NCBI GenBank assembly: GCA_044892505.1
Contig: CM097882.1
Location: 604,128,001-604,192,000, forward strand
Direction of reading: 5' to 3'
DNA from: Schmidtea nova
Taxonomy: Eukaryota
Length of the DNA: 64,000 nucleotides
The notes beneath the pieces were generated by a model that saw only the letters and a list, made by a program, of their open reading frames with translations, searched no databases and was not told the DNA's origin. This document shows positions 46,723 to 47,280 of the stretch, piece after piece. Every line of letters begins with the position of its first letter. The stretch's first letter is position 1. Both the position numbers and the translations under genes were made by a program.

Positions 46723-47280
46723 TTAATTTAATAACACGGATGGGTTTATGACATCCAACCACTGTCTCTCAGTCAGCCCACTTAACAGATCTACTTCGAT
46801 CCCAATCCTTTCCGCATATGCTCTGCGCTCGCGTCGTCTCTTCGCTCCTAAGCGATTTCGGCGCTTGGTCCTCTTGGAGCCCTCCGGTGGTGACACAATC
46901 TCAGGGGTATTCATCGTGACACTCTGCTCCATGTCGGTTTGTGTGCTCAGCGACATCCTGGTAATTTCTACCCAGCGATTGAACGTGCTGGCTCTGATGA
47001 GAGGTCGCAATTGTTGGGAAATAAATTCTTTAGTGGACGCCCTCATATAATTATATAGCTCTAGCTTCACCGCTGCCGTCTCTCGCGTCTGTTCATCAGC
47101 GATCTGTTCGGCTCTGTATCTTGCCTACAGGATCAATTTCACCCGCTCTGGATGAAACCAGGTAGTTTTCACTCGTTGATGTTCGTCATTCAATTGGTGC
47201 AGCCTACTTTCCAGGACTTTGATGCGAGATTGGTGCTCTTTAGCCTCCCGTTTATAATCACGCTTATTATTGTTGTTCAT
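46723..47280 (-). CDS. Accessory ORF-B (coiled-coil N-terminus, Arg-rich C-terminus), one internal TAG
   Basis: ATG at 47280 directly after a pyrimidine-rich acceptor TTTCTCTCCTTTCTAG. It is in frame with 46723..47070 except for TAG at 47125-47127. The C-terminus is conserved with mostly synonymous changes in the 21790-21960 copy. Confidence 0.7.

Follow-up and report, generated by a model that had tools for sequence, protein, structure and literature searches.

A conserved arginine-rich domain with weak likeness to bZIP factors, encoded inside a long LTR-like repeat of Schmidtea nova

Introduction

Regulatory accessory genes are well known from the complex retroviruses. In HTLV Rex and in Tat/TAR an arginine-rich accessory protein goes together with a structured RNA located in or near the LTR, while HTLV-1 HBZ is a retroelement-encoded regulator of the bZIP type that is tied to an LTR promoter and comes antisense from the 3' LTR. 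HERV-K Rec with RcRE and HIV Rev with RRE show the same combination of arginine-rich accessory protein and structured RNA in or near the LTR, according to the accessible part of PMC11379458. Among the LTR retrotransposons of invertebrates one case is already known: Cer1 of C. elegans encodes CERV, an orphan regulator that is produced from a spliced mRNA (PMC10309623, in the portion available). The gypsy elements Burro and Ogre, as the available sections of PMC6431247 describe them, have multi-kb LTRs, thousands of copies and accessory ORFs, and Penelope-like elements with pLTRs carry a terminal module of ca. 250 bp, a TATA box and initiator, introns and an unequal 5' extent (PMC3846280, excerpt).

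The locus described here lies in a 64-kb stretch of S. nova DNA (64,000 nucleotides, hereafter the window, to whose first letter all positions refer) that is AT-rich, repeat-laden and contains several gypsy elements. A preliminary description had pointed to an orphan, arginine-rich accessory protein next to a structured RNA. We have followed up this description by computational analysis of the gene, of the repeat that carries it and of related contigs.

Results

Coding constraint in the C-terminal domain of ORF2

The gene and its closest relative in the window comprise the following features.

46723..47280, minus strand: ORF2, 185 codons, interrupted in this copy by one in-frame stop at codon 52 (47125-47127)
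Immediately 5' of the ORF2 ATG, minus strand: acceptor-like AG
46721, minus strand: AATAAA
47161..47277, minus strand: predicted N-terminal long helix of ORF2, coiled-coil-like, residues 2-40, not common to copy B
46729..46872, minus strand: conserved 48-codon domain, a basic helix with N-x7-R, about two hydrophobic heptads and a short tail
21368..21940, minus strand: copy B, second subfamily, with domain (21794-21937), AATAAA and RNA module in common with unit A, the repeat that carries ORF2

The evidence that the C-terminal part of ORF2 is coding comes from the comparison of positions 46872-46729 (copy A) with 21937-21794 (copy B). Between these two sequences, and over a stretch of 36 codons from RTKR onward chosen for its protein likeness (a choice that does not itself generate the third-position pattern), 22 codons differ synonymously, 4 non-synonymously and 10 are identical, with 8, 2 and 23 mismatches at the first, second and third codon positions. 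The corresponding pS is 0.94, which is saturated so that dS is not computable, against a pN of 0.097 and a dN of 0.10. Over the whole domain the counts are 12 identical, 25 synonymous and 11 non-synonymous codons (pS 0.90, pN 0.145). When the same base changes were placed randomly, a maximum of 26 of the 36 residues stayed identical against the 32 observed, a value reached in none of 20,000 permutations. Each of the other five frames of the domain has a stop in at least one copy. The preliminary description had claimed more than 20 synonymous differences with few residue changes, and from them a real coding domain; the counts agree, and the seven codon pairs that it quoted are all present in the compared sequences. 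By these codon comparisons we regard it as confirmed that the 48-codon domain is a real coding domain under purifying selection. Along the 22 codons of the basic region there are no R/K swaps and N, L, G, A, A, Y and A are retained, and this conservation of basic and non-basic residues suggests specific contacts more than charge alone.

The likeness between A and B, 70% identity over 583 columns, is limited to the last 48 codons and the downstream non-coding DNA. The 20 codons 5' of RTKR cannot be aligned (none identical, 16 non-synonymous), and we therefore see in A and B two subfamilies with a common C-terminal domain and not two copies of a 185-aa gene. To speak of two copies, as had been done, is thus right for the domain and the DNA downstream of it and wrong for the part upstream of RTKR. 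No match to the promoter or to ORF1 (see below) was found for copy B in the window.

Homology and structure of the ORF2 protein

Among the 24,736 Pfam families scanned, the sole match of the domain alone was, in each copy, bZIP_1 (PF00170), with E 0.018-0.032 and 14.8-15.6 bits, below the cut-off of 27.6 bits. In copy A the match covers 32 residues against 33 profile positions. Of 67 natural arginine-rich control 48-mers none matched bZIP_1 at E up to 1 and one matched another family (E 0.027), the controls being mostly GC-rich bacterial frames from two overlapping loci, neither independent nor composition-matched. The bZIP is defined by an invariant N-x7-R/K and a first zipper residue exactly nine positions after the R/K (PMC4676100, in the part accessible). 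N-x7-R is present in both copies, and in both the first zipper residue comes 8 and not 9 positions after the invariant Arg. The zipper consists of about two heptads followed by Ser-Gly-Leu and a tail, and the domain has 48 aa versus 60-80 aa for a bZIP. Because of the short spacer and the two-heptad zipper the domain is bZIP-like and not a member of the family. There are 10-11 Arg per 48-residue domain, and R or K make up 11-12 of its first 24 residues.

In a single-sequence model of ORF2 (with X at the break) the pLDDT was 90-95 for residues 1-30 and 59 on average, with a helix predicted over the basic region (residues 145-159). Prediction of a domain homodimer scored 0.00, which is evidence neither way. 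With so weak a model fold searches have little power; they gave no match in the PDB and none at E 0.001 in a viral library. Searches by sequence were equally empty: none of 86 candidates was homologous to ORF2 read with X, the two-copy domain profile found none among 8,000 longer proteins, 1.84 billion representatives gave nothing at E 0.001, and the PDB nothing for ORF2 or for the domain profile. Viral contigs yielded 0 of 65 stretches for ORF2 and 0 of 1 for ORF1, and phage records none. The best score in the Atlas search was 0.81 for ORF2. A metagenome search gave two loci (2 of 212 stretches) at 40% identity, which were rejected as homologs; the one examined is a frame antisense to a bacterial ORF. 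The protein thus keeps the orphan status it had been given, and no gag, env or other known retroelement domain was matched by any search run. Nor did the Pfam scan, read up to E 10, return a Rev, Tat or Rex family (HMMER filters drop most matches above 0.1). One export-signal-like Leu pattern is common to both copies; it also appears in 16,998 of 20,000 column shuffles, a chance level that gives no support to an export-signal reading.

Promoter, splice-like sites and ORF1 in unit A

ORF2 lies inside a 3.2-kb repeat on the minus strand, together with a promoter-like region, splice-like sites and a second ORF.

46323..49547, minus strand: unit A, LTR-like, 5' TGTTGGGC ... CCAGCA 3', with TATA on each flank
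49136..49274, minus strand: Pol II promoter-like region, consensus matches only; the bin is conserved among related contigs
49268-49274, minus strand: AP-1-type site, ca. 100 bp upstream of the TATA box, chance probability 0.16
49194-49198, minus strand: reversed CCAAT
49166-49172, minus strand: TATA
From 49141, minus strand: initiator-like TCACTT
49059 (first) and 48911 (second), minus strand: donor-like GTs
48999 and 48113 (the latter just before the ORF1 ATG), minus strand: acceptor-like AGs
47537..48109, minus strand: ORF1, 190 aa, a Trp-rich orphan with intact frame, AATAAA at 47528

Six AATAAA are found downstream of the TATA box, one of them right after each ORF. At the level of motifs, unit A has an LTR-type promoter and poly(A) signals. 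For ORF1, none of 31 candidates was a homolog and the sequence searches gave no match elsewhere; against the PDB only two chance-level rows were obtained by sequence, the Atlas returned nothing usable, and the structure model was itself unusable (pLDDT 31).

Two structured RNAs

Two regions of unit A are predicted to form structured RNAs, and the one at its 3' end has five relatives in the window, copy B among them.

48890..49010, minus strand: 5' structured RNA with a closed junction that holds two hairpins, approximately coincident with a predicted non-coding exon (AG 48999 to GT 48911)
46323..46572, minus strand: 3' structured RNA module, with a GNRA-capped hairpin, a three-way junction and two candidate pseudoknots
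37900..38148, plus strand: r1, distantly related to the 3' module and lacking the domain
38302-38550, minus strand: r2, relative of the 3' module, without the domain
39540-39788, minus strand: r3, relative of the 3' module, without the domain
50487-50729, plus strand: r4, relative of the 3' module, without the domain

The 5' RNA folds with a z of -4.40, equalled in none of 200 shuffles. In the 3' module 8 of 56 predicted pairs have a compensatory change, and two-sided changes affect 5 of 46 pairs of a hand-set structure (reached in 11 of 500 shuffles), so the structured RNA of the preliminary description is real. Both candidate pseudoknots never vary and are for that reason unproven. Single-strand folding of the module is unremarkable in A (z -0.97) and moderate in B (z -2.21). 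The candidate pseudoknot of 46379-46374 and 46433-46428 pairs TTAGGG with CCCTAA, the common animal telomere word, in both A and B; this may be chance. Rfam gave sub-threshold chance rows only for both RNAs, a tRNA search gave none, and motif scans found no instance in viral contigs or in prokaryote genomes. Inspection of the 3' module by eye gave no support to a SECIS, twister, pistol, HDV-like or telomerase-RNA reading.

The relatives of the 3' module were found by profile searches of the window. A, r1, r2 and r3 share an 18-nt motif (4 matches against 0.08 expected), and copy B and r1-r4 have the same 3' end point as unit A with unrelated flanks. The domain is confined to A and B, the other four of the six modules being without it. 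As a ca. 250-bp structured module without Rfam match, r1-r4 are 85-93% alike and possibly belong to a sister LTR family as its 3' ends, the corresponding 5' ends being at 33584, 38562 and ca. 31854. Upstream of r1 and r4, the segments 37567-37829 and 49919-50184 are 70% alike, degenerate and possibly coding, with no Pfam match when read with X.

Related contigs from sequencing runs

We compared positions 46200-49700, at 80% likeness, with contigs from four runs that belong to a single study and may include the source sample. Pieces related to unit A are numerous in the genome. With a single-copy-like spacer bin as the reference, and bearing in mind that summed contig depth is not copy number, the depth was 11-42x for the ORF bins, 22-98x for the domain bin, 107-205x for the promoter bin, 285-702x for the 5' RNA and 1,342-5,021x for the 3' RNA. 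The 5' RNA is at 7-13x and the 3' RNA at 52-64x the depth of the domain bin, the latter ratio to be read knowing that saturated third positions hide divergent domains at 80% likeness. Among the 32 pieces listed of 8,873, the 8 distinct coding pieces had 241 substitutions and 4 gaps and the 5 mainly non-coding pieces 103 substitutions and 20 gaps (Fisher p 3e-7, duplicate and mixed pieces left out). Because gaps are so few in the coding pieces, those related to ORF1 diverging almost without any, ORF1 and ORF2 look constrained along their length. The break codon of ORF2 is absent from most related contigs (790 of 820 depth units in run X1), which makes it look private to this copy. In three of the four runs contigs join positions 46902 and 47753 with 16 other letters between them. 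In the alignment this junction is a deletion derivative that would bring ORF1 beside the basic domain, out of frame.

The carrier repeat and its surroundings

Two gypsy elements adjoin unit A.

41593..45592, minus strand: adjoining gypsy, intact-looking, 4.0 kb, with identical 144-bp LTRs (41593-41736 and 45449-45592), a 5-bp target duplication and a primer-binding-like site
46107..46322, minus strand: older gypsy, probable 3' part of a short LTR plus primer-binding site

The LTRs of the adjoining gypsy place ORF2 outside that element. An 11-nt primer-binding-like word located 206 bp downstream of unit A also follows this gypsy's LTR (2 matches against 0.05 expected), and the arrangement suggests that unit A was inserted in the short LTR of the older gypsy. 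Unit A has TG...CA ends with short imperfect inverted termini. Its 5' 8-mer also opens two other repeats, at 33584 and 38562, whose mutual likeness begins exactly at this 8-mer, a motif with a count that by itself is weak (6 of 100 shuffles reach it). In run X3, 25 contigs have unrelated loose ends at 46323. The flanks are TATA and TATA, but inside TA repeats; the target duplication is ambiguous (2, 4 or 6 bp). No second copy or adjoining internal region of unit A was found within the window, as expected of a solo LTR, and no gag/pol or primer-binding site directly after it. We infer that unit A is a solo LTR, which is the best fit to its ends and surroundings and in our judgement a likely one. 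The earlier statement that the ORF lies within one LTR is then likely correct for the separate 3.2-kb unit A and does not hold for the LTR of the adjoining gypsy, which has 144 bp.

A different carrier seems possible but doubtful. The repeat might be a non-autonomous element, Penelope-like or of the tyrosine-recombinase kind, whose structured 3' end is fixed, or else a part of a 3.4-kb 5' LTR ending at the primer-binding site at 46117, and in all these cases the function of the protein would be an independent matter. Copies in the window do have a common 3' end and an unequal upstream extent, the 3' module is far deeper in the contigs than the 5' parts, and both the ambiguous duplication in TA repeats and the primer-binding-like site 206 bp downstream would suit such a carrier. 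The defined TG..CA ends with imperfect inverted termini speak against it, as do the ca. 400 bp retained upstream of the start site, a sense strand in which no hammerhead core was found, and the absence of any Pfam family (RT, endonuclease or other domain) in the 24 frames upstream of the six modules. A longer LTR in particular is difficult to reconcile with six modules that all end at the same point next to unrelated flanks.

Other repeats and frames were observed in the window. The segment 40752-46120 is a nested gypsy, the intact-looking 4.0-kb element lying inside the older one with the same primer-binding-like word, and a third, broken gypsy is located at 26999-30904. A 1182-aa frame at 12448-15996 has an endonuclease VII match and by eye may be a Polinton-type DNA polymerase B. 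Segments 23535-27000 and 52149-55485 are duplicates 28,485 bp apart that contain the end of a gypsy, a RING-finger ORF in one exon and a nuclear-receptor zinc-finger piece, the last of which points to an animal host; their compared parts are 100% identical, so this may be an assembly duplication. Tandem arrays occur at 18220-20210 (ca. 120 bp, with TA microsatellites) and at 34837-35889 (ca. 144 bp, with relatives at 17363-17997). The 157-codon frame at 34200-34673 resembles, by eye, a histidine acid phosphatase exon, and 10291-10650 holds a fragment of a Tc1/Sleeping Beauty-type helix-turn-helix, below cut-off.

Discussion

Proposed function

The C-terminal domain of ORF2 is strongly conserved and weakly resembles bZIP, and the protein probably regulates its element. 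Our main reading, to which we give a probability of about 0.4, is that ORF2 would encode a nuclear regulator that binds DNA. We favour DNA binding because the bZIP likeness is the sole positive sequence signal and because the non-basic residues are kept. ORF2 would be an accessory gene of a multi-copy retroelement clade, placed inside a long LTR-like repeat and expressed downstream of the repeat's own promoter. The motifs suggest that a short leader may be spliced to either ORF1 or ORF2, both of which have an acceptor and a poly(A) signal to themselves. In the predicted product the N-terminus is coiled-coil-like and variable, while the C-terminal part is conserved and consists of the basic helix and, after it, a short hydrophobic stripe. 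This bZIP-like helix would direct the protein to the nucleus and bind DNA there, so that it acts in trans on promoters throughout the element family, with the AP-1-type site upstream of the TATA box as the first candidate target. The contrast of saturated synonymous with low non-synonymous change, the bZIP_1 match, the N-x7-R, the few coding gaps and the shared fixed termini are in favour of this reading as a whole; against it count the 15 bits versus 27.6, the short spacer, the fading heptads, the chance probability of 0.16 for the AP-1-type site, the lack of adjoining gag/pol and the fact that the gene is broken here.

The preliminary description had instead likened the protein to Rev, Tat or Rex, and a function of this kind is possible, if on the improbable side. 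The basic helix would bind one of the two element RNAs, so that unspliced genomic RNA escapes splicing and premature polyadenylation and is exported, or that elongation is boosted. Two conserved structured RNAs are indeed present within unit A, a full-length transcript would have to cope with several splice-like sites and six AATAAA, A and B have in common just the domain and the 3' RNA, and there are precedents in CERV of Cer1 (accessible part of PMC10309623) and in Rec with its RcRE in U3 (likewise PMC11379458). The resemblance is weakened by a sole Pfam match that is bZIP_1 and not Rev, Tat or Rex, by an export-signal-like pattern at chance level and by the four RNA relatives in the window that have no domain; the 52-64x greater depth of the RNA bin points the same way, though divergent domains are hidden at 80% likeness and the protein could act in trans. 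The domain is next to the 3' RNA because it is the end of the last ORF, and a pairing of the two, for which this adjacency is the only argument, is unsupported. It is also conceivable, but unlikely, that the conserved part serves to localise the protein to the nucleus or nucleolus and adds a short helix for binding other proteins (sequestering, for example, host bZIP or silencing factors), with no specific nucleic acid binding. A composition of 11-12 R or K in the first 24 residues would be in keeping with such a signal, and the shifted, short zipper argues against canonical DNA binding. Yet basic and non-basic residues alike are near-invariant at saturated synonymous distance, and simple localisation signals usually need less than that. 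Between these readings we continue to prefer a DNA-binding regulator.

The locus may even represent a whole retroelement clade with a complex-retrovirus-like cassette in the LTR, each solo LTR being self-contained, with two genes expressed by splicing, two structured RNAs and a member of a new, bZIP-derived family of basic-helix regulators that would reach the DNA or RNA of many copies in trans; this broad version is speculative and we consider it fairly unlikely. A solo LTR could still express sense genes that lie inside the repeat and downstream of its promoter, and in that way a nuclear factor acting in trans could be supplied by tens of copies. Together with the two RNAs, the domain offers a small, directly testable protein-nucleic acid system.

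Comparison with known systems

The databases searched contain no relative of the protein family or of either RNA, and in the mostly open-access literature covered we found no description of two sense ORFs placed within such a repeat. In the Penelope-like setting, no RT, GIY-YIG (24 frames) or sense-strand hammerhead was found for unit A, in which 2.6 kb separate the promoter from the 3' module and neither occurs a second time. The accessory ORFs of Burro and Ogre, compared by description from the available sections of PMC6431247, are located in the internal region or in the polyprotein. CERV is set apart, also by description (PMC10309623, available portion), since ORF2 has 185 codons, a conserved part without Cys and a position inside the repeat. 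With regard to Rec, Rev, Rex and Tat, ORF2 has no Pfam match to those families and no export signal above chance, and the 3' RNA forms the 3' end of the repeat, with the promoter and the ORF2 poly(A) signal upstream of it, and is not in U3 as is RcRE (PMC11379458, accessible part). The bZIP factors share with the domain the N-x7-R, small residues after Asn-Arg-Leu and hydrophobic residues in heptad phase; the ORF2 domain scores below the cut-off, its spacer is one residue short, its approximately two heptads give way to a distinct conserved tail, and it is encoded by a mobile repeat and preceded by an N-terminal coiled coil. Compared to HTLV-1 HBZ, finally, ORF2 has a non-canonical zipper and is oriented in sense to the promoter of the repeat that carries it.
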